Source of the DNA: a virus
Length of the DNA stretch: 52,599 nt
Direction: 5' to 3' (one strand)
IMG/VR virus record: IMGVR_UViG_3300045988_037879
Location: 1 to 52,599 of that record
A program made the translations under genes and the position numbers. The notes below the pieces were generated by a model. The model was not told where the DNA came from. It saw only the letters and a list, made by a program, of their open reading frames with translations, and made no database searches. Shown here in pieces: positions 1 to 52,599 of this stretch (the stretch's first letter is position 1; each line of letters opens with the position of its first letter).

Positions 1-99
1 TATCCGATGTCACATTTTAGTATAAATATAAATAAATAAGCGAGTTGGAATTTAACGACATTGCAGAGTTTCAGGCGTTAGGCTCTCGTTCTCTCCGCA
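1..99. repeat. Left copy of exact 99-bp terminal direct repeat (circularisation overlap)
   Basis: Bases 1-99 (TATCCGATGTCACATTTTAG...CTCTCCGCA) read identical to 52501-52599. Confidence 0.95.
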
Positions 100-2044: not shown

Positions 2045-2458
2045 TTAGGTGAAGTTGAAACACTTGCCGACCTTGACAATGGTTGTGTCTATCGGATAAA
2101 GTTCAATGGGCGGTTCATTCACGGCGCGTTTGCCGTTCATTTCCTGAACCTTTGCTTCTGCATCTTGGATTCCTTGAATAAGTATGTCCGACCCGGTGAA
2201 GCAACATCGCCTTTCGCCGTCGGGTGTGCCGTCAGGCTTCTTCACAAAGAAGTCGCCGTTTGCGTCGGCACAATCGTTGAACGTCGCAAGAACGACTTGC
2301 ATTTGCAGTCGCATTCCCGAATTGTTCTTGCCCGTGAACTTTGACTTTGAAATCTTTGTTTTCTCAATCAAGATGCGCTTGCCGAACAATTCTTCAATCT
2401 CGATTCCTTTTCCGATGATTGCCCCGGATTCAATTCCGAGGTCGCCAAACCTTGCCAT
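2045..2458 (-). CDS. Hypothetical protein (137 aa) between the DGR and the holin
   Basis: Long ORF tightly packed in the operon. I recognise no motif in it. Confidence 0.5.
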   Translation of the reverse strand: MARFGDLGIESGAIIGKGIEIEELFGKRILIEKTKISKSKFTGKNNSGMRLQMQVVLATFNDCADANGDFFVKKPDGTPDGERRCCFTGSDILIQGIQDAEAKVQEMNGKRAVNEPPIELYPIDTTIVKVGKCFNFT

Positions 2459-2481
2459 TGTTAGTAAGTGTTAGTTAGAAG

Positions 2482-2889
2482 TTAGTTGTTCAGGACTTCG
2501 ACCAATGCCGCGTCGATTTCTTCGGTCAGGGTTAAGAAGTCCTTATATTTCTGCACGGCGGTTTCATCGACCTTGATTCCCAACGTGTGCTTGTTGTAGG
2601 AGTTTACAAGGTCAAATTCGGCGGTTTCGTCCACGATGGAACGGATGATTGCCTTTTTCAAGTTCGCTTTGGTCGGGGCTGCAAATGTCCTGACTTCATA
2701 GCAAGACCACCCGGTTTGCACTTCCTCCGCGTCGGCGGACTGATTGGCGATGTCACCGCCGGGAATGCCCATTTCGGGCGCGACGTTAAGACGCACGATG
2801 CAAGAACCGTCGTTGTCCTTTTCAAGCATCTTCGGTTTTCCGTGCGTCATGTCGTAATGCGCATTTGGCGCGATTGAAACTAATTTCAT
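2482..2889 (-). CDS. Hypothetical acidic protein (115-135 aa) immediately downstream of the DGR RT
   Basis: The ORF overlaps the RT 3' end by 68 nt if it starts at 2889. Alternative ATGs lie at 2850 and 2829. It is not an obvious four-helix Avd. Confidence 0.5.
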   Translation of the reverse strand: MKLVSIAPNAHYDMTHGKPKMLEKDNDGSCIVRLNVAPEMGIPGGDIANQSADAEEVQTGWSCYEVRTFAAPTKANLKKAIIRSIVDETAEFDLVNSYNKHTLGIKVDETAVQKYKDFLTLTEEIDAALVEVLNN

Positions 2890-3982
2890 ACGGCATTGAT
2901 GTTTTTAGTTTGTTAAAAAGATTTCGTGAATTGCAGTATTTACACCAGCCCCACCAACTGCAAATTTGTTGGCGATACGCTTCTTTGGGCAAAGGCTTCT
3001 TCCGTTTGTTAAGACGTGCCACCCGGCGGCACAACCTTTGCTTGATTGACTTGCGCAATCGCGTGTGGGTGTGATAAAAGACATAACCCAAGAAGTCAAT
3101 TCCCCGCGCATCGACGGGGAACACCTGATAATTCCTTTTGACCGTCAGTTTCAACCCGGCAAGATAAGCCCGGATTTCGTGCAATAGTTCGTGCAAGGAA
3201 TCCTTGTCACCCGCAAGAATGACAATATCATCGGCATATCGGAAATAATATTTCACACGCTTTTTCTCTTTCAACCAATGGTCGAAGTAAGCCAACATCA
3301 GGTTTGCGAAATATTGCGAAAGGTAATTGCCAATCGGCACACCGTTTCCATCAATCGCAACAACCTTTCCGTTGACCTGAACGAAATTGCGGATGCTCAA
3401 ACCGGGATTGTCGGTTGAATCAATGATTTCATCAAGAAGTGCAAGCAATCGTGCGTCCTTGATTTTGCGACGCACTATGCCTTTCAACACTTCATGGTTA
3501 ATTGACGGATAGAACTTGCGGATGTCTATTTTCAGGCAATACCGTGTGCCGTCCTTATCCTCTTTCAATGCCCGGCGCACGTTCTTTGCGCAAGCATGAA
3601 TCCCGCGATTCTTGATGCAAGAATAAGTGTCCTTTGTGAACACCGACACCCAAATGGGTTCAAGCACGTTCATAATCGCATGGTGCAAGATTCGGTCGGG
3701 GAAATACGGCAAGCGGTATATTAGACGCTCTTTGGGTTCATATATAGTGAAAACATGATAAGGGGATGTCTTGAAAGTTCCGTTCTTTAATTGCTCGTGC
3801 AACGCAAGGATGTTCGCTTCACGGTTTTTGTCGTGCATCTGAACACCATAAGTCCGCGACTTTCCGCGCCTTGCCTTTTCATCGGCAAGACGTAAATTGT
3901 CAAGGCTTATGACCTTTTCAAAAAGATTGTTCAAACGCTTCATCCTTGCTTGAATAATTGGCTTCTTCGGTTTCCCTACCAA
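2822..3982 (-). CDS. DGR-type reverse transcriptase
   Basis: RT motifs include PIGNYLSQYFANL (the DGR-specific motif-4 signature, I/LGxxxSQ) and the catalytic box RYADDIVIL. The gene lies directly downstream of a template repeat. An alternative start is M14 (3943). Confidence 0.9.
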   Translation of the reverse strand: MVGKPKKPIIQARMKRLNNLFEKVISLDNLRLADEKARRGKSRTYGVQMHDKNREANILALHEQLKNGTFKTSPYHVFTIYEPKERLIYRLPYFPDRILHHAIMNVLEPIWVSVFTKDTYSCIKNRGIHACAKNVRRALKEDKDGTRYCLKIDIRKFYPSINHEVLKGIVRRKIKDARLLALLDEIIDSTDNPGLSIRNFVQVNGKVVAIDGNGVPIGNYLSQYFANLMLAYFDHWLKEKKRVKYYFRYADDIVILAGDKDSLHELLHEIRAYLAGLKLTVKRNYQVFPVDARGIDFLGYVFYHTHTRLRKSIKQRLCRRVARLNKRKKPLPKEAYRQQICSWWGWCKYCNSRNLFNKLKTSMPYEISFNRAKCALRHDARKTEDA

Positions 3983-4085
3983 AGCCGTTCAACGTGGTTT
4001 ATTTTTTGCCGTGGGTCGCCCCACTCATACACCCCCGGAACGGGATGTTTTTGTGGCAAGGTTTCAGGTGATGCAATATTTTTAC
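3983..4085 (-). other. TR-RT spacer, expected to be part of the DGR template RNA (Sp-like region)
   Basis: 103-nt non-coding gap between the TR 3' end and the RT start. Its role is inferred by analogy with the BPP-1 DGR RNA. Confidence 0.35.
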
Positions 4086-4201
4086 AAGCATTGCTGAGAA
4101 CCGATATTCGCATTCGTATTCGACGGCGCATTATTCGTATTCGCATACACGAAGCCTGCATTCGCACCATTATTCGCATTACCGCTGAACAAAACGCCGC
4201 G
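4086..4201 (-). repeat. DGR template repeat (TR), including the IMH*-like 3' end at 4086-4102
   Basis: 116 nt, non-coding. It is homologous to 4294-4409 and 43601-43677 and retains A (T on the + strand) at every mismatched position. In the target frame it carries 10 AAT codons. Confidence 0.92.
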
Positions 4202-4268
4202 ACACCTGACAACCCATTTTCTTTCATTTCAAGATTCCGTTAAAATGCTTTCGGGTAACGATTTCCGC

Positions 4269-5582
4269 TTACGCGGCGGTGTCGATTGGGTAAAAGCAAA
4301 GCCGAGAACCGAAATACGCACTCGCATACGACGGCGCATCATTCGTATACGCATACACGAAGCCCGCAAACGCACCATTACCCGCAGCACCGCCGAACAA
4401 AACGCCGCGTGTGGCTGAACCACTTGCCGGAATGTTCGTATAAAAGTAGTCGCAAAAATACGACGTTGTGCCACCACCGACCGCAAGGGGCATGATTTCG
4501 CCGTGTTCGCCGAGAATCAGGGCTTTAACATACCCCTCTTTACGGGGCAAGTTGCCGCGTAACTGATAGCCCGACCCGATGGTGCTTGCAAATTCGGCGG
4601 GATTGTCGCACACGAAAAATTCCGATAATCCCCCGGCGGCATCGGACTGAATGTTGCAAAGGCAACCATCCGTCCATTTCCATATATGACCGAAAGGATT
4701 TGTCACGCCGCGATAAGACGGAACGGCGACGGTCAGGGTTGCGCCGTACCCGGCGGGCAACGCATAATCGACAACCCCGGTGTGATTGCCCAACGAAAGG
4801 GTGTGACCGCAAGGGATGAACGGATTATAACCGCACCATGTGTTCCACTTGCCGCCGTCAAGGGTCGTGACACCCGCGCCAAGTCCGCCTTGACGGAATC
4901 CGTCGGCGGTCAATGCGGCGTTGTAAGCTGCTTGCGAATTGAAATTGCAATATTCAATCGCAAAGAACCACCACAACTTGCGGTGTGTCTGATATAGGTT
5001 GCAGTTCCACGACACCGACCCACGGGCGCGGGCGTATGCGCGGAAATTGGTCAGGCTGATAGACGTTGCCGGGCGACCTAACAAAGTGTGGTCGGTCGAA
5101 TCATACGACGCATTGTTGTTGCCGCCGCGATAGTCTGCATCGGTGTTGACCACCGCGCAAAGTTTGTTTGTTGACCGCTGAACACACGCTTCATCGGCGG
5201 AAACATAGTCTTTGCGCCATTTGATGAAACCCGGCAACGGTCGGTCGGACATCAGGGCGCGGCACTTGTTGCCGTCCATTTCAAAGCGCATATATGCGTC
5301 GGGCAACTCGACCATGAATTGACCGTCCGCCCCGGTCAGGTTTGCCGCCGCCCCGTTGTCGCGTTTTGAAGAATCGTTTGCGTGTAAGTAGTAATTGACC
5401 GTTCCATTGTCGCGTAAAACGCAACGGCGCATAAGTGACTGAACGGGCAAGGACTGATGAAGTTCGTTCTTGCCGATACGGGTTGGAATGGGATTTGAAA
5501 CGGTCTTATCCCATTCGATGCCGTAATAATAGTCATAAGCGAATGCGGGCTTTGTGTTGCCCGTGCCGATTAAAAGACCCAT
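4269..5582 (-). CDS. DGR target protein 1: tail-module receptor-binding protein with C-terminal variable region
   Basis: 437-aa ORF at the distal end of the tail genes. Its C-terminus ...GGAAGNGAFAGFVYAYTNDAPSYASAYFGSRLCF is encoded by VR1. A CLec/FGE-like fold is inferred. Confidence 0.85.
   Translation of the reverse strand: MGLLIGTGNTKPAFAYDYYYGIEWDKTVSNPIPTRIGKNELHQSLPVQSLMRRCVLRDNGTVNYYLHANDSSKRDNGAAANLTGADGQFMVELPDAYMRFEMDGNKCRALMSDRPLPGFIKWRKDYVSADEACVQRSTNKLCAVVNTDADYRGGNNNASYDSTDHTLLGRPATSISLTNFRAYARARGSVSWNCNLYQTHRKLWWFFAIEYCNFNSQAAYNAALTADGFRQGGLGAGVTTLDGGKWNTWCGYNPFIPCGHTLSLGNHTGVVDYALPAGYGATLTVAVPSYRGVTNPFGHIWKWTDGCLCNIQSDAAGGLSEFFVCDNPAEFASTIGSGYQLRGNLPRKEGYVKALILGEHGEIMPLAVGGGTTSYFCDYFYTNIPASGSATRGVLFGGAAGNGAFAGFVYAYTNDAPSYASAYFGSRLCFYPIDTAA
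4294..4409 (-). repeat. DGR variable repeat 1 (VR1), with IMH-like end at 4294-4310
   Basis: Gap-free alignment to the TR (offset 208). There are 15 mismatches over the 106-nt core, all at TR adenines. Confidence 0.92.
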
Positions 5583-5583
5583 A

Positions 5584-5856
5584 TTAGAAGCCCCATTTTA
5601 AGTTAGTATTCGCCAACGACGTTGGCATTATCTTTTTCACGATTTCGGGATTCCACCCGCAATCAAATTGCGTTGTGACGGAATCGCCGTCAGGCATCCC
5701 GGCAAGCTGCACCGATAGAGTGACCGGGGCGTTGCCGTCGTTCTTGATGTTGAAGCACTGACCGTCCGGCAAGGAAAAGCCGGAATCCGTCAGGGCAACA
5801 ACACCCATTTTGCCGATTTGGGCGGAAACTTGTTCGCCCGACCTTGTTGTGTCCAT
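5584..5856 (-). CDS. Hypothetical tail-module protein (90 aa)
   Basis: The ORF abuts DGR target 1 (stop at 5584, next start at 5582). Confidence 0.5.
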   Translation of the reverse strand: MDTTRSGEQVSAQIGKMGVVALTDSGFSLPDGQCFNIKNDGNAPVTLSVQLAGMPDGDSVTTQFDCGWNPEIVKKIMPTSLANTNLKWGF

Positions 5857-5895
5857 GTCGTAATTCGATTTGATGTTTGCAAAATTACTTCAATA

Positions 5896-5913
5896 TGTCT
5901 TACTATAAAACAC
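5896..5913. promoter_or_regulatory. Dispersed intergenic palindrome, copy 1
   Basis: TGTCTTACTATAAAACAC, lying between two minus-strand genes. Confidence 0.5.
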
Positions 5914-5936
5914 GGTTGAATAAATAAAGCATAACT

Positions 5937-6332
5937 TCACGCGATAAGGGCTTCAAGGCGGTTGATTTCATCGCGGATTGATTGCCTTTCCCGGTGCAAT
6001 TCCGCGATGTCATAAGGCAATGAATCACCGACCAAAGATGCTTCATAACACTTTGTTACCTTGTAGTCCGAATCTGCAAGTCCGGCTTTTAGTTCGTCGA
6101 TGCGGGCTTGTGTCGCCACGGGGTCAACCTTGATTTCCCACGACTGCACGACACATCCATCAACGACGGCGAATGAATCAACCGCGACAAACCCGGTTTC
6201 CGTTTGCGGTTGTTCGGTCGGCACAAAATTGAGAAACCCGGCATCCCGAAGTTGTGCCATTCTTTCGCCAAGCGACGGCGGACAAAAGCGAATGTCCGCC
6301 GTGCCATCAGGCAATATTTTTGCTAATTCCAT
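5937..6332 (-). CDS. Hypothetical tail-module protein (131 aa)
   Basis: ORF directly downstream of the large tail protein. Confidence 0.5.
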   Translation of the reverse strand: MELAKILPDGTADIRFCPPSLGERMAQLRDAGFLNFVPTEQPQTETGFVAVDSFAVVDGCVVQSWEIKVDPVATQARIDELKAGLADSDYKVTKCYEASLVGDSLPYDIAELHRERQSIRDEINRLEALIA

Positions 6333-26607: not shown

Positions 26608-29181
26608 TTATTTTGTCGTTCCCTTGCTTCCTTTCTTTTGTTCTGATTCTGCGGTGTTGATATAACCCATAATCTTCTTAAATCCTGAATTGCCTTTGAA
26701 AAGGCTTAATTCGATAAGACAATCTTGCATCGAAAGGGTGAAACCACCACGGGTGCAAGATTTTTTTGCGCCAAAACGACACTTCAAAACGGTATCATTA
26801 AGGGGCTTCCAACCATTACTTGTCGCGGACTGCAATTCAAGAAATTCAAGCCCGGTTGCGGTTCTCCTGACAACTGCGGCGTGTTGTCCGCAAGTGAAAT
26901 AGTATTCTTTGCCAATTTCAACCATTTTAAGCAACTTATGGGCAACGGTGAAGTTGTTTTTGCTTTCCTCGACAACGCCGCCAAGTTTCCTTGCGATTTC
27001 GGCAATGTTTCCCGTCCGGCTGAAAAATCTGCGACTTTCGCCATCACGAAAATCAAGAACATCAAGCCCGATGCGATTTGCGCAATATGTGAATGCAAGA
27101 GATGAACAAGACCCTTTCGTTAAGTCACCACCGCCGACACGCCCAATGATTTCGGTTTCGGTAAGTGTTTTGGGCAACTCGGAAACGGCATTATAATTGA
27201 CCTTAAAGGATTTTGAAAGGTGTTCTTCCATTTTGGAAAAATCTTCATCCTTTGGCTTGTTCTTCTTTGCTTCTTCAACCTTTGCTTGCAAATTGGTGAA
27301 TGCCGCATCTCTATCACGTTTGAAATTCGCCCACGAATAAGCCCGGTCGCCCCCACGCAAATAAAAGACTTGCTTTCGCAATTCCGTGCTGTCAACACCC
27401 AATGCGTCGGCTTCTTTTATCAAGACTTCGGCATCAGTAATGAATTTGTCTGCCTTTTTAGTTGCGGAATATACGCGACCATCCAAGCGATACATTTCAT
27501 CTTGCATCTTATCAAATATCGTATCATTATCAATATCAGCAAGGAAAGAATCAAGCAAATTGCGTAAGGTGGTTGTTTTGACACCCCATTCATCTGCGGT
27601 CTTAATCGAATCACGGACTTGCGCGACAACCCCTTTTTTGTAAACGCTTAATCTTGCTTCCGGCGATGCCTTATATTGACGCAACTTGTCCTTTGCCTTT
27701 TCAAGTTCCGATTTATAGAATAAAGACCCGTCCGCCCACATCGACTTGTCCGCAGAAAGATTGGTCATGTATTGTGTGAGTTCGGCGACAACATCCGGCA
27801 ACACACCGACCCCGGCGGCGTTGATGTCTTTAATCAGTTGGGCGGCATCCTTAAAGAATGCCGACAATTCGGTGGTGTACTTCGTACCCTCGGACGTGAT
27901 CAGCGAAATGAATTTGTTGATGTCCTTGACATCCTTTGCCGCCACCGCCGCGTCAAGACCTTTCAACCGAAGTTCAAGCCCCCATTCTTCGGCAATCTTT
28001 CGTGCTGCTTCGACCGACGGCATCAGTGCGTCAAGTTGTGCTTGCACGGGGTCAACTTCGGGTTCAGGCAATGCGATTTTCAACCCCTTTGCCAAGTCGC
28101 CGTCAACAAAGTTGTCTTTTATGAAATACGGGGTCGATGCCCAGCCCGCCGACGCTTCCATATTTTCGGCGACCCATTCTTTGAACCCGTCCGGCACATC
28201 GGCAACAAGATTCTTTGCTTGCTTCTTCTTGTACTCCGTGCCGCGCAAAGCTGCTTTGAGGTCGCCCAATTCATTTTCATCAAAGGTTTCTTCATCCATA
28301 AGGATTGGCACGGCGTAACACATACATTGCGGATGCCACCCTTTGAACTTGAACGTCTTGGGATAGCGACCTTGCAAGCGGTCACACATCTTGCATTTGC
28401 AAAGGGGTTCATGGTTGCTTCGGTGAATCTCAAAGCCGACAACGAAATCAAGTTGTTGCCACCGCAAAAAGTCGCTTTCCCGGTAAGCCATATTGATTTC
28501 GGAACGTGTCAGGCGTTGGGCATTCTTCACGCTCGACCGATAGACACCTTGCCCCGGATGAAATGCCCGCGCCGCTTTCGACAACACAAGGTTGCCCCGC
28601 TTGTCGCGCACACGGCGAAACAAGCGGTCAGGGTCGCGCAAGTTCTTCTTGACATCGCGGGCAAGTTCTTGTGCGCTGCGCCCCTCTCCAAGTCCGACAT
28701 CAAGGGCGGTTTCTAATTGGTCACGGTATTGCCCGACATAACGCCACACACGTTGCGACAAGTCCATGCCGCCGACCTTGCGCCCCTGAAAGGTGCTTAA
28801 AGCGTCCAAATTGCGGTCTTGCATCTTCTTCAACCGCGCCTTTGACAACTTCGACGTGTCCATGATTGACGCAATGAACCCGTCGTTCTTGTCGCAAGCG
28901 AACAACCATTGATTCTTCGACCCTGATTCAATCGTGGTTTGAAGCTGCGATGCAAGTTGCCCAACAATCTTTTTCAATTCGGCTTTCACTTCGGGGTAAT
29001 CATCGAAAGAAAAGGGCTTGTCGGGGTCAATCTTGCGCCGGGCGGCTGATTTTGCCATCGCAAGGGTCGCACGGTCAAACAAGGCTTGCACCGCCGCCGC
29101 ATATTGCTCGGTGGTGCGATAATGGTTCAAGTCGAATCCCTGAATCGAAAGCCGGGTTGTTTTTTGACGCTTCTTTGCCAT
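26608..29181 (-). CDS. Minor head / head-morphogenesis protein (SPP1 gp7 / Mu F-like N-terminus) with a long C-terminal extension ending in a Cys-His domain
   Basis: Its position follows the portal. The N-terminal ~330 aa carry RSEINMAYRESDF and the Cys cluster CKCKMCDRL...HPQCMCY. The C-terminus has GSCSSLAF and CGQHAAVV. Confidence 0.7.
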   Translation of the reverse strand: MAKKRQKTTRLSIQGFDLNHYRTTEQYAAAVQALFDRATLAMAKSAARRKIDPDKPFSFDDYPEVKAELKKIVGQLASQLQTTIESGSKNQWLFACDKNDGFIASIMDTSKLSKARLKKMQDRNLDALSTFQGRKVGGMDLSQRVWRYVGQYRDQLETALDVGLGEGRSAQELARDVKKNLRDPDRLFRRVRDKRGNLVLSKAARAFHPGQGVYRSSVKNAQRLTRSEINMAYRESDFLRWQQLDFVVGFEIHRSNHEPLCKCKMCDRLQGRYPKTFKFKGWHPQCMCYAVPILMDEETFDENELGDLKAALRGTEYKKKQAKNLVADVPDGFKEWVAENMEASAGWASTPYFIKDNFVDGDLAKGLKIALPEPEVDPVQAQLDALMPSVEAARKIAEEWGLELRLKGLDAAVAAKDVKDINKFISLITSEGTKYTTELSAFFKDAAQLIKDINAAGVGVLPDVVAELTQYMTNLSADKSMWADGSLFYKSELEKAKDKLRQYKASPEARLSVYKKGVVAQVRDSIKTADEWGVKTTTLRNLLDSFLADIDNDTIFDKMQDEMYRLDGRVYSATKKADKFITDAEVLIKEADALGVDSTELRKQVFYLRGGDRAYSWANFKRDRDAAFTNLQAKVEEAKKNKPKDEDFSKMEEHLSKSFKVNYNAVSELPKTLTETEIIGRVGGGDLTKGSCSSLAFTYCANRIGLDVLDFRDGESRRFFSRTGNIAEIARKLGGVVEESKNNFTVAHKLLKMVEIGKEYYFTCGQHAAVVRRTATGLEFLELQSATSNGWKPLNDTVLKCRFGAKKSCTRGGFTLSMQDCLIELSLFKGNSGFKKIMGYINTAESEQKKGSKGTTK

Positions 29182-42285: not shown

Positions 42286-43029
42286 TTACACTTCGATGAT
42301 GGCGATTTCCGGCGCGACTTCCTGAATCTTGATAAGTTCATCATCAAGAACTTTATCGCGTAAATCTTCAAGGGTTGCTTGTGCGCCCGGCGACATCAGA
42401 ATGAAGTGAACGTCGCGCCCGTCGATTTGGGCGAATGTTTCGACTTCAAGGGTTTCAGGCTGCAAGCCCTTGAAAATCGGGATGCACAACGTGAATGATT
42501 CCGGCAAGTTGGAATTGACCACTTGCGCGAAATTGTCGGTGCGGCTTCCGTTCATCTTGATGTCGCGGTCGATGGTCGCTTGCACCGTGCCGTTGAAGTT
42601 CATCAGGCGCGACACAAGTTCCATGTTGTCCTTGCGGTCAGGAAAGAATGTGCGGTTCATCTTGAAGAACAATCCGAGTTCGGCGGGTGTCCATACCTTG
42701 TTAGGGTCATTGATGCCGAATTTCACGAATTGCGGGTTGAATTGCAGTTTCGACACGACCGTTCCGCGTGTATATGCGTCCCTTTCGTTGATTGTAAGGG
42801 TCATTTTGACGCTTTCGCGGTCAACGGTGATGAAACTTTCGGTTTGCTTGAATTGCCCGGCGTTGACACGCTTTTTCAGGTATTCAAGGATTGTGCCGAT
42901 TGTGCCGACAATATCGGTCTTGACCGGGGCTTTTGGGTCAAGTTGCTTTGTCGCTTCACCCTCGCGGATGATGATTTCGGCGGTCGATTGACCGGGCGCG
43001 AAATTGATTTGCATTTTTTCGGTTTCCAT
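42286..43029 (-). CDS. Hypothetical protein (247 aa)
   Basis: Long ORF in the early operon. Confidence 0.5.
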   Translation of the reverse strand: METEKMQINFAPGQSTAEIIIREGEATKQLDPKAPVKTDIVGTIGTILEYLKKRVNAGQFKQTESFITVDRESVKMTLTINERDAYTRGTVVSKLQFNPQFVKFGINDPNKVWTPAELGLFFKMNRTFFPDRKDNMELVSRLMNFNGTVQATIDRDIKMNGSRTDNFAQVVNSNLPESFTLCIPIFKGLQPETLEVETFAQIDGRDVHFILMSPGAQATLEDLRDKVLDDELIKIQEVAPEIAIIEV

Positions 43030-43043
43030 GCTGATTGATGGGT

Positions 43044-43493
43044 TTAGTCATTTGTTCCCGTTAACGGCGGAACATTCCCGGTGCGCAACGCGCCAAAAAT
43101 GGTCGGTTGAAGTTCATCGGCGGTCGCCGGGCGTGATTCAATCAACAACCCGTCGGCGTTGTAGAATCCCGTCATTTTCGCTTCTTGGTCGGTGAAGCGA
43201 TAACACGGTTCGGTCACATATTCGGCTTTTGCCTTGATGTTGGAAACCATGCCCGTCCGCTGCTCTTTCAAGGGCTTCAACCGCCCCTTATATTCGGCGG
43301 TCACTTGCTTCATTTCGCTTTCGATTTCGGCGATTTCGATTGATACGTTGGCAAGGTTCTCTTTGTGTCCTTGCAATTCTTCCGGGGAATAGGGCTTCAT
43401 GTAACCCTTATCCACGACGGCATCGCAGTTGTCCGCAAGAAATTGTCGGCGGGCAATGGGGTTGTCGATGTCGCTCCCAAGTGTTCGTTCCAT
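43044..43493 (-). CDS. Hypothetical coiled-coil protein (149 aa)
   Basis: ORF preceded by a palindrome copy about 10 nt upstream of the ATG. Confidence 0.5.
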   Translation of the reverse strand: MERTLGSDIDNPIARRQFLADNCDAVVDKGYMKPYSPEELQGHKENLANVSIEIAEIESEMKQVTAEYKGRLKPLKEQRTGMVSNIKAKAEYVTEPCYRFTDQEAKMTGFYNADGLLIESRPATADELQPTIFGALRTGNVPPLTGTND

Positions 43494-43527: not shown

Positions 43528-44151
43528 TTAGAACAAAAGAACTTTGTTCCAAAGGTCGATGAACTGATTTCCGAATTGACGGGCGCGATTTGCGGTTTTG
43601 AAGCAAAGCCGAGAACCGAAATACGCAGACGTATACGACGGCGCATTATACGTATCCGCACACACGAAGCCCGCACGGTTTTTGTCATAGACAAACCACG
43701 GAAACCACTTGTCTTGACGGCTGTTTGAGAAGTCCGGCACGAAATCATCCGCCTTGTTCCACGCTTCCGCGATGGTGAACAATTCGTTCAGGGCGGTAAG
43801 TGCCTTGACGTGCGACGGGTTCAGGGCATCGACAAGACGGGTGACATCTTCAAGACCCGGCACGGTGTTGGTGGCGGCAATTTTTTTGCTGACCGTAAAT
43901 TGCTTGTTCGCCTTGCCGCCAAGATATTCACGGGCGGTGATGTAGTCGGTGATGGTTTCGTTGGGTTCTTCCTTGACTTCGACTTCTTCAAGGCTGAAAT
44001 CAAAGGGGGTCAACCATTCATCGTCGGTCGGGTCAAGACCATCGTTTGCGTCGCTGATGTAGTTGCCCATCGCGTCGGCGGCATCCTGACGGGTAGCAAA
44101 GCAACCCACGGTTTCGCCGTTTTCGGTGTTTGAAAGTTTATACTTTATCAT
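43528..44151 (-). CDS. DGR target protein 2 (207 aa) encoded in the early/recombination operon
   Basis: The segment NRAGFVCADTYNAPSYTSAYFGSRLCF is encoded by VR2. 23 codons follow the VR. Confidence 0.8.
   Translation of the reverse strand: MIKYKLSNTENGETVGCFATRQDAADAMGNYISDANDGLDPTDDEWLTPFDFSLEEVEVKEEPNETITDYITAREYLGGKANKQFTVSKKIAATNTVPGLEDVTRLVDALNPSHVKALTALNELFTIAEAWNKADDFVPDFSNSRQDKWFPWFVYDKNRAGFVCADTYNAPSYTSAYFGSRLCFKTANRARQFGNQFIDLWNKVLLF
43601..43677 (-). repeat. DGR variable repeat 2 (VR2, truncated), with IMH-like end at 43601-43617
   Basis: Gap-free alignment of 43611-43677 to TR 4096-4162. There are 11 mismatches, all at TR adenines. The 17-nt 3' end is identical to that of VR1. 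Confidence 0.88.
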
Positions 44152-52500: not shown

Positions 52501-52599
52501 TATCCGATGTCACATTTTAGTATAAATATAAATAAATAAGCGAGTTGGAATTTAACGACATTGCAGAGTTTCAGGCGTTAGGCTCTCGTTCTCTCCGCA
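52501..52599. repeat. Right copy of exact 99-bp terminal direct repeat
   Basis: Identical to 1-99. Confidence 0.95.

Follow-up and report, generated by a model that had tools for sequence, protein, structure and literature searches.

A probable second, distal target of a phage diversity-generating retroelement in a small gene of the early operon

The window analysed here, the whole 52,599-nucleotide (nt) stretch of IMG/VR virus record IMGVR_UViG_3300045988_037879, is a temperate, siphovirus-like phage of Bacteroidales that carries one diversity-generating retroelement (DGR) with two targets. One variable repeat (VR1) lies at the C-terminus of a tail protein, next to the template repeat (TR) and the reverse transcriptase (RT), and a second, shortened one (VR2) lies in the gene of a 207-amino-acid (aa) protein in the leftward early operon. 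VR2 is, with high confidence, a target of the same DGR as VR1, because its mismatches to the TR fall exclusively on adenines and because it has both the initiation of mutagenic homing (IMH) sequence and the codon frame in common with VR1. Population and comparative data indicate that VR2 is actively diversified. The 207-aa protein is tentatively read as a binder that works inside the infected cell, a possible function among several that are weighed below.

Relationship of VR2 to the template and to VR1

The repeats and the two target genes are located as follows.

43528-44151, minus strand: VR2 target gene, 207 aa, with an N-terminal domain (residues 1-58) and a conserved C-terminal domain (residues ~100-207) that contains the VR.
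43601-43675, minus strand: VR2, 75 nt, residues 160-184 of its host protein, matching the 3' two-thirds of the 116-nt TR.
43601-43617, minus strand: IMH of VR2, coding strand GGTTCTCGGCTTTGCTT, the same as the IMH of VR1.
43663-43675, minus strand: A-poor block at the 5' edge of TR homology, coding strand TGCGGGCTTCGTG, the last stretch that matches the TR.
4086-4201, minus strand: TR, 116 nt, aligned gap-free to VR1 (offset +208) and to VR2 (offset +39515).
4086-4102, minus strand: IMH* of the TR, coding strand GGTTCTCAGCAATGCTT.
4294-4409, minus strand: VR1, full length, at the C-terminus of the tail protein, with 18 mismatches to the TR over 116 nt, all at TR adenines.
4269-5582, minus strand: VR1 target gene, 437-aa tail protein (phrog_5302 tail protein, 1.6e-121), at the end of the tail module.

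A preliminary description of this DNA had aligned 43611-43677 with TR 4096-4162 and counted 11 mismatches, at 11 of 19 adenines and at 0 of 48 other positions, and these counts were reproduced (a T on the plus strand being an A on the coding strand). Over the full repeat, VR2 43601-43675 aligns gap-free to TR 4086-4160 with 12 mismatches, every one at a template adenine, and the realignment brought out no non-adenine difference (0/55). Under a random-position model, the chance that 12 of 12 mismatches fall on the 20 adenine sites of 75 nt is 4.8e-9, and for a 77-nt version of the repeat, in which 14 of 14 mismatches are at adenines, it is 3.8e-10. The resemblance ends at TR 4160: of the 41 positions that follow, 28 are mismatched, as in a random alignment.

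The 17-nt end at 43601-43617 (AAGCAAAGCCGAGAACC), which had been described as IMH-like and common to both repeats, is identical to VR1 4294-4310 and differs from TR 4086-4102 at three adenine sites. VR1 and VR2 differ from one another at 9 sites, all of them TR adenines, a recount that agrees with the earlier figure and with the independent diversification proposed from it, and VR2 is read in the codon frame of VR1. Scanning with adenine-degenerate windows of the TR, which covered both strands, recovered three TR-like copies in the window, namely the TR, VR1 and VR2; a third VR was not found.

The description of VR2 as a truncated repeat that corresponds to the 3' two-thirds of the TR holds, and its 5' edge has to be moved from 43677 to 43675, since codon 159 (43675-43677; AAT in the TR, CGT in VR2) is fixed within lineages and not hypervariable. 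Across 45 homolog genes this codon is nearly always NNT (CGT, CCT, GCT, GTT or ACT), with GTA or GTC in three of them. It looks like a former VR position that now lies beyond the rewritten region, and the mismatches at TR 4161-4162 (AAT to CGT) probably mark the end of homology and not mutagenesis. The A-poor block that forms the edge is kept in the TR and VR2 of relatives and is presumed to be the 5' anchor for cDNA integration.

VR2 contains ten randomised codons, of which six are AAT, one is TAT, two are ACG and one is ATC in the template. Because there are six AAT codons rather than the seven first counted, the repertoire amounts to ~2.9e9 peptides and not 4.4e10, so that the initial figure of ~4e10 variants was about 15-fold too high.

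Ongoing diversification of VR2

When 120 homologs are aligned, the variable positions cluster at the TR-adenine codons, which encode residues 164, 166-169, 173-175, 177 and 178. The 45 homolog genes have NNT at every AAT position, the other bases of the repeat are invariant, and so is the IMH of VR2. Seven distinct close relatives, which are 90% or more identical as proteins, are polymorphic at 16 of 17 non-IMH adenine sites, at 0 of 55 non-adenine sites of the VR and at 0 of 3 adenines of the IMH; beyond the VR, 34 of 546 sites vary. Most of the listed members of two 90%-identity clusters differ from their representative only, or almost only, in residues 161-178, and proteins from separate samples that otherwise agree completely or nearly so differ at 5-8 VR positions.

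The same pattern is found over larger distances. Six IMG/VR contigs carry an RT and TR together with a homolog, and in each the VR2 differs from its own TR by A-only mismatches inside the repeat and follows the non-A changes of that TR (for example GCGCCGTCG to ACGGCTACG), a co-variation that requires continued TR-to-VR2 transfer. At the level of the population, diversification is ongoing at both VR1 and VR2. A fossil VR, once a target or left behind by recombination with VR1 and now no longer written by the DGR, would account for the truncation of VR2 relative to the TR, for the lack of a hairpin downstream of it and for codon 159, which resembles a frozen former AAT codon; it is nevertheless highly improbable and essentially refuted by the population data, given the differences at 5-8 VR positions between otherwise near-identical proteins, the restriction of polymorphism within the repeat to A sites, the co-variation in the six diverged phages and the intact, invariant IMH, and because gene conversion from VR1 would not yield variants that differ from VR1 and TR at A sites only.

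Genome layout and setting of the VR2 gene

The first 99 nt of the window (1-99) are identical to the last 99 nt (52501-52599), which makes it a circularly closed assembly of 52,500 bp and not a linear fragment. The second target is therefore as remote as stated beforehand, 39.4 kb away on the map and ~12.9 kb when measured around the circle. PHROG annotation of the genes yields a temperate siphovirus-like layout, with an integrase and a repressor-like gene on the plus strand at the right end and a leftward operon that starts with an SbcC-like gene, RecT, an MBL-fold (metallo-beta-lactamase-fold) hydrolase, the VR2 gene, phrog_12688, DUF2303 and a replication initiator, and goes on with a DnaC-like loader, Ant, a nucleoside deoxyribosyltransferase and a DNA methyltransferase, the last of these 4 kb downstream of the VR2 gene. 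Downstream of the early operon lie, in this order, the terminase, portal, head, tape-measure and tail genes, the gene of the VR1 tail protein, the TR, the RT and the endolysin. This gene order bears out the earlier placement of the VR2 gene outside the virion module, in the early replication and recombination operon, where it starts 11 nt after the stop codon of the MBL gene. A promoter and terminator scan around the VR2 gene gave counts at chance level with a sigma-70 consensus, which is inappropriate for Bacteroidetes.

The position in the early module is kept in most (about 45) of 64 related viral loci, down to ~55% identity. In unrelated, larger backbones the homolog adjoins an exonuclease, RecE-like, SSB or NinB gene, or DnaB together with methyltransferases. 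The closest relatives (loci L001-L004, L007 and L008, 90% identical in the VR2 protein) are without phrog_12688 and DUF2303, which occupy 42286-43493 of the window, and have ~0.9 kb of other sequence in their place, indicating that gene content varies just downstream of the VR2 gene.

Near-identical DNA was not found among GenBank phages. Searches of these phages with tblastn gave weak matches alone, to MT836526 and phage Versailles, and with a more distant query they gave LoVEphage, BI-TP1 and PV4-TP1. Prophage copies of the homolog are present in Muribaculaceae (the closest, at 91%), Prevotella, Bacteroides pyogenes, Parabacteroides and Alistipes, and the homolog family is common in prophages of Bacteroidales genomes. 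The window contains no tRNA genes. An 857-aa protein (26608-29181, minus strand) matches head-morphogenesis/minor-head (SPP1 gp7-like) PHROGs as well as a Bxa-type ADP-ribosyltransferase PHROG (phrog_16625, 1.8e-85).

The DGR and its proposed mode of action

The remaining parts of the DGR are as follows.

2822-3943, minus strand: DGR reverse transcriptase, 373 aa from the ATG at 3943 (Pfam RVT_1, 2e-19; phrog_1423, 3e-132).
3944-4085, minus strand: spacer between TR and RT, assigned by position and presumed to be part of the DGR RNA.

The RT carries IGNYLSQ at residue 204 and YADD at residue 236, and these (I/L)GxxxSQ and YxDD motifs, together with the RVT_1 and phrog_1423 matches, are those expected of the DGR clade, to which it is assigned by sequence. 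The first 83 nt from IMH* fold slightly, though not significantly, better than shuffled sequence (z = -1.4). An 83-aa open reading frame (3976-4227, minus strand) overlaps the TR on the coding strand; it is rich in Arg, Ile and Met, resembles an out-of-frame reading of the repeat and is probably not a gene.

By analogy with the DGR paradigm, the RT would copy the TR RNA (4086-4201) into cDNA, misreading adenines, and this cDNA would replace VR1 in the adjacent tail protein and also VR2, 12.9 kb around the circle, in the 207-aa early-operon gene. The cDNA would be integrated at the IMH end, as in the paradigm of Bordetella phage BPP-1, and the common 17-nt IMH, by differing from IMH* at three positions, would make the transfer one-way. 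At VR2 the 5' junction would have to resolve in the A-poor block TGCGGGCTTCGTG (43663-43675), and as homology stops after 75 nt, only the 3' two-thirds of the information in the template could be written into this target.

The 207-aa protein and its family

The 207-aa protein has no hydrophobic segment (its Kyte-Doolittle maximum over 15 residues is 0.87) and thus neither a signal peptide, as had been remarked at the outset, nor a membrane helix, so that its export is unlikely. Its database homologs (n = 3,802) are nearly all ~207 aa long. A profile search of 1.84 billion cluster representatives retrieved 1,497 relatives at E <=0.001 (50%-identity clusters), most of them of 110-220 aa, with a conserved core at about residues 105-207 and the core consensus ..ALxALxKLxTIAEAWNKxDGFVPDFSxxxQxKxFPWF..[VR]..GSRLCFKTxxRAxQFGKQFxDLWN. 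Six members (P0212, P0218, P0233, P0248, P0253 and P0269), proteins of 235-305 aa, contain two tandem VR-bearing C-terminal domains.

Searches of the 207-aa protein against Pfam, NCBIfam and PADLOC gave no match. A PADLOC methyltransferase match within the family, most likely that of P0146, was rejected, since its first 71 residues share 80% identity with the N-terminal part of a methyltransferase of the neighbouring type; P0146 is read as a chimera or as sharing an N-terminal module, and not as a real functional fusion. The possibility that the protein is a paralog of the VR domain of the tail protein was likewise rejected, as BLASTP aligns 22 residues and hhalign 36 columns, all within the VR, and with similarity confined to this segment the scaffolds of the VR1 and VR2 proteins are unrelated at the sequence level. 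No paper was found in the literature that characterises the function of the VR2 protein family.

AlphaFold gave an unusable result with a shallow alignment (pLDDT 62), and an alignment of 74 diverse sequences was used instead, giving a model of the 207-aa protein with a pLDDT of 91 and a pTM of 0.80. In this model, residues 1-58 form an N-terminal beta-beta-alpha-beta domain, which is a separate mobile module. The C-terminal domain comprises two helices (100-109 and 112-134), a beta-hairpin (149-156 and 161-169), a less confident loop (170-183) and two terminal helices, and the VR corresponds to the second strand of the hairpin and the loop that follows it. Sequence searches of the PDB with the family profile and with the VR1 protein retrieved nothing. 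The peptide encoded by the TR aligns gap-free and weakly with the VR of Mtd from phage BPP-1 (1yu4; E 0.089; LFGGNWNSTSNSGSRAANWNSGPSNSPANIGAR). Foldseek against BFVD retrieved uncharacterised phage proteins only, many of them through the N-terminal domain of ~55 residues alone.

Two further observations concern this N-terminal region (residues 1-59; 43972-44151, minus strand). In the homolog of locus L040 it is 56% identical to a stretch of the IAS virus (KJ003983.1 / NC_049978.1, 97058-97240). In structure it also matches many BFVD entries for stand-alone phage proteins that are 50-80 aa long, such as A0A8S5Q9L3 with a TM-score of 0.91.

Possible functions of the VR2 protein

An actively diversified target in an early module implies a binding surface that is randomised for use inside the cell. 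The tentatively favoured reading is that the 207-aa protein could be an early-expressed, cytoplasmic, non-virion binder that recognises a variable molecule of the host or of a competitor, most plausibly a defence component, a possibility suggested by genomic context. A broader form of the idea, in which the ~1,500-cluster family would consist of small cytoplasmic proteins, encoded in the early modules for recombination, replication and DNA modification across many unrelated backbones of Bacteroidales phages, with a fold that is neither recognisably C-type lectin nor immunoglobulin (Ig) and with a randomised hairpin and loop that serve as an adaptable counter-defence inhibitor or decoy, is somewhat unlikely. 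A counter-defence role was already raised by Benler 2021 (PMC8008677) and Nature 2025 (PMC12629997).

Several observations weigh against the favoured interpretation, both of the protein and of the DGR that acts on it. The terms early, cytoplasmic and non-virion derive from gene order and sequence, and the label non-structural from the position of the gene and the lack of a hydrophobic segment. Neither domain nor fold provides a functional handle: Pfam searches over 74 family members returned spurious single matches only, and Foldseek of the model against the PDB returned no match (best E 0.49, TM-score <=0.17), so that the structure prediction proposed as a check did not confirm the suggested minimal C-type lectin fold. 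Across the 64 related loci no obligate partner gene is conserved beside the VR2 gene. In the survey of relatives, ~60% of core-motif representatives of the family lack the exact IMH-encoded GSRLC motif, from which it follows that the scaffold also works without this DGR. On the side of the DGR, none of the small open reading frames near the RT, TR or VR1 (2045-6332) matches Avd-like families in Pfam, NCBIfam or PHROGs; Avd is not universal among DGRs, and this lineage may work without it or with an unrecognised accessory protein. No inverted repeat that could form a GC-rich hairpin or cruciform was found downstream of VR1 or VR2. Starting at the IMH of each VR, 83 nt of DNA fold no better than shuffled sequence (z = +0.3), with a 4-bp CCGC/GCGG stem alone after VR1, and for lack of a hairpin after either VR, homing here may differ in detail from the BPP-1 model.

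Function on the virion is unlikely. The 207-aa protein would in that case be a receptor-binding, decoration or ejected internal component encoded outside the structural module, and VR2 would serve adsorption or entry. The VR sequence is of the same Mtd-like type as that of the tail protein, the phrog_5302 'tail protein' family matches the VR segment, and both targets of two-target phage DGRs such as those of tentaclins are argued to be virion proteins (PMC10743442). Set against this, the likeness to the tail protein is limited to the 22-36 residues of the VR and the scaffolds are unrelated, the protein has neither a signal peptide nor a recognisable virion-anchoring domain, and its gene follows the MBL gene at 11 nt in a recombination and replication operon, a placement that recurs in unrelated backbones.

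A role in the lysogen is distinctly unlikely. Here the protein would be a prophage-encoded sensor or exclusion factor directed at competing phages, a hypervariable 'antigen receptor' that protects the lysogen, and not an anti-defence protein. The integrase and repressor-like gene of a temperate phage and the wide distribution of the family in Bacteroidales prophages agree with such a role, as do the DGR-diversified putative antigen sensors known from bacterial conflict systems (PMC10907252). The VR2 gene, however, lies deep in the leftward early lytic operon with no promoter of its own above chance (in the sigma-70 scan, which is weak for Bacteroidetes), and an effector domain is neither fused to its product nor conserved beside it.

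The favoured reading, that of an intracellular binder, would matter because functional understanding of phage DGRs comes nearly entirely from receptor-binding tail proteins and because the arrangement recurs across many gut Bacteroidales phages. DGR carriage correlates strongly with broad host range and high gut-virome prevalence (PMC12636319). The window offers a compact example of 207 aa and ten variable codons, for which a confident structure model exists and natural variants number in the hundreds, and its shortened VR indicates that partial homology to the TR suffices for homing. Existing knowledge of how DGRs work is unchanged by the finding; a demonstration of counter-defence, and possibly the fold, would be new if true. 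The homolog in the cultured LoVEphage makes the binding partner of the protein experimentally approachable.

Comparison with known systems

Other gut phages with this arrangement and this protein family have already been published, and the earlier characterisation of a distal, apparently non-structural second target as unusual was overstated. Wu et al. 2018 (PMC5758913) reported many non-adjacent DGR targets inside prophages, with targets within 50 kb common in phage-associated DGRs. In these, as in the multi-target cellular DGRs of Treponema and Legionella, the RT and TR act in trans on targets kilobases away, as would be the case in the window; the distal phage targets and their genomic module were not characterised in that survey, unlike here. 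Distal second VRs in particular were described by Benler et al. 2021 (PMC8008677), who found two VRs in Quimbyvirus, one of them in the structural module and the other in a remote gene suggested to be non-structural, both targets being said to contain C-type lectin domains, and by the Nature 2025 study of induced gut prophages (PMC12629997), in which four cultured Bacteroides phage species have a second VR near counter-defence genes and far from the RT cassette. Table S3 of the latter gives these two-VR species as Saffi, LoVEphage, Shia and Wilby; its entry for Avd is 'NA' in at least some DGR-bearing Bacteroides phages, these four among them.

LoVEphage provides the closest link to the window. 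The neighbours of its gene AUSP0021_00025 are a Lar-like gene, four methyltransferases, a PAPS reductase and a tRNA ligase, and the C-terminus of the encoded protein aligns with the LoVEphage TR, from which it differs at adenines only. Comparison of the family alignment with this protein by hhalign gives 99.4% probability (E 5e-21, 121 columns), and identity to the homolog of locus L040 is ~28%. By these profile matches, the VR2 protein of the window and the distal target of LoVEphage and Quimbyvirus are assigned to the same family. At the very point where VR2 of the window loses homology to the TR, the LoVEphage protein contains 25 additional residues (..LVLWGGTANNGAYCG..); this segment carries the 5' third of the VR and is missing here, leaving 75 of 116 TR nt covered, and the 'truncated' VR is thus a shorter form within one family.

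Quimbyvirus and LoVEphage resemble the window in having one TR and two VRs, one in the tail module beside the RT and one in a small protein encoded at a distance among replication, recombination, methyltransferase and anti-restriction genes, as well as in their Bacteroidales hosts and the lack of an annotated Avd. They differ from it in their backbone, which is plasmid-like or tRNA-integrating and 71-75 kb long, compared with 52.5 kb and an integrase in the window, and in the neighbours of the distal gene, which are SbcC, RecT and MBL genes in the window and an island of methyltransferases and a tRNA ligase in LoVEphage. Their RT is split over three overlapping frames, whereas that of the window is a single open reading frame. 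The LoVEphage RT (OY731444.1, 30230-31773; 8231-9774 of locus L180) is annotated as three short consecutive open reading frames, which agrees with the three-frame RT of Quimbyvirus reported by Benler.

The DGR of BPP-1 (Mtd, brt, avd, TR and IMH) has in common with that of the window the adenine-specific transfer from TR to VR, an IMH that closes the VR at its 3' end and is opposed to a divergent IMH* in the TR, and the (I/L)GxxxSQ motif. BPP-1 has one target, an Avd and a hairpin after the IMH, whereas the window has two targets and neither Avd nor hairpin was found in it. Unlike the target in BPP-1, the second target of the window is no tail fibre, and no match linked its fold to the C-type lectin fold of Mtd.

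Tentaclin phages (Baykov et al. 2023, PMC10743442) likewise have one DGR that serves two unrelated proteins, which share only the VR-bearing element. In that system the two target genes form part of the DGR cassette, and both products are argued to belong to the virion. A tentaclin starts with a C-lectin domain at its N-terminus, continues with Ig domains and ends in a conserved C-terminal Ig anchor to the capsid or tail. The second target of the window, in contrast, is 12.9 kb away in the early operon, is 207 aa long and bears its VR near the C-terminus, and Ig-like domains were found neither in its AlphaFold model nor by Pfam.

Relative to these systems, what the window adds is the size and conservation of the family, the absence of a fold or domain match, the recurring placement of the gene in recombination and replication modules, and a VR that is actively maintained with homology to only two-thirds of its TR.

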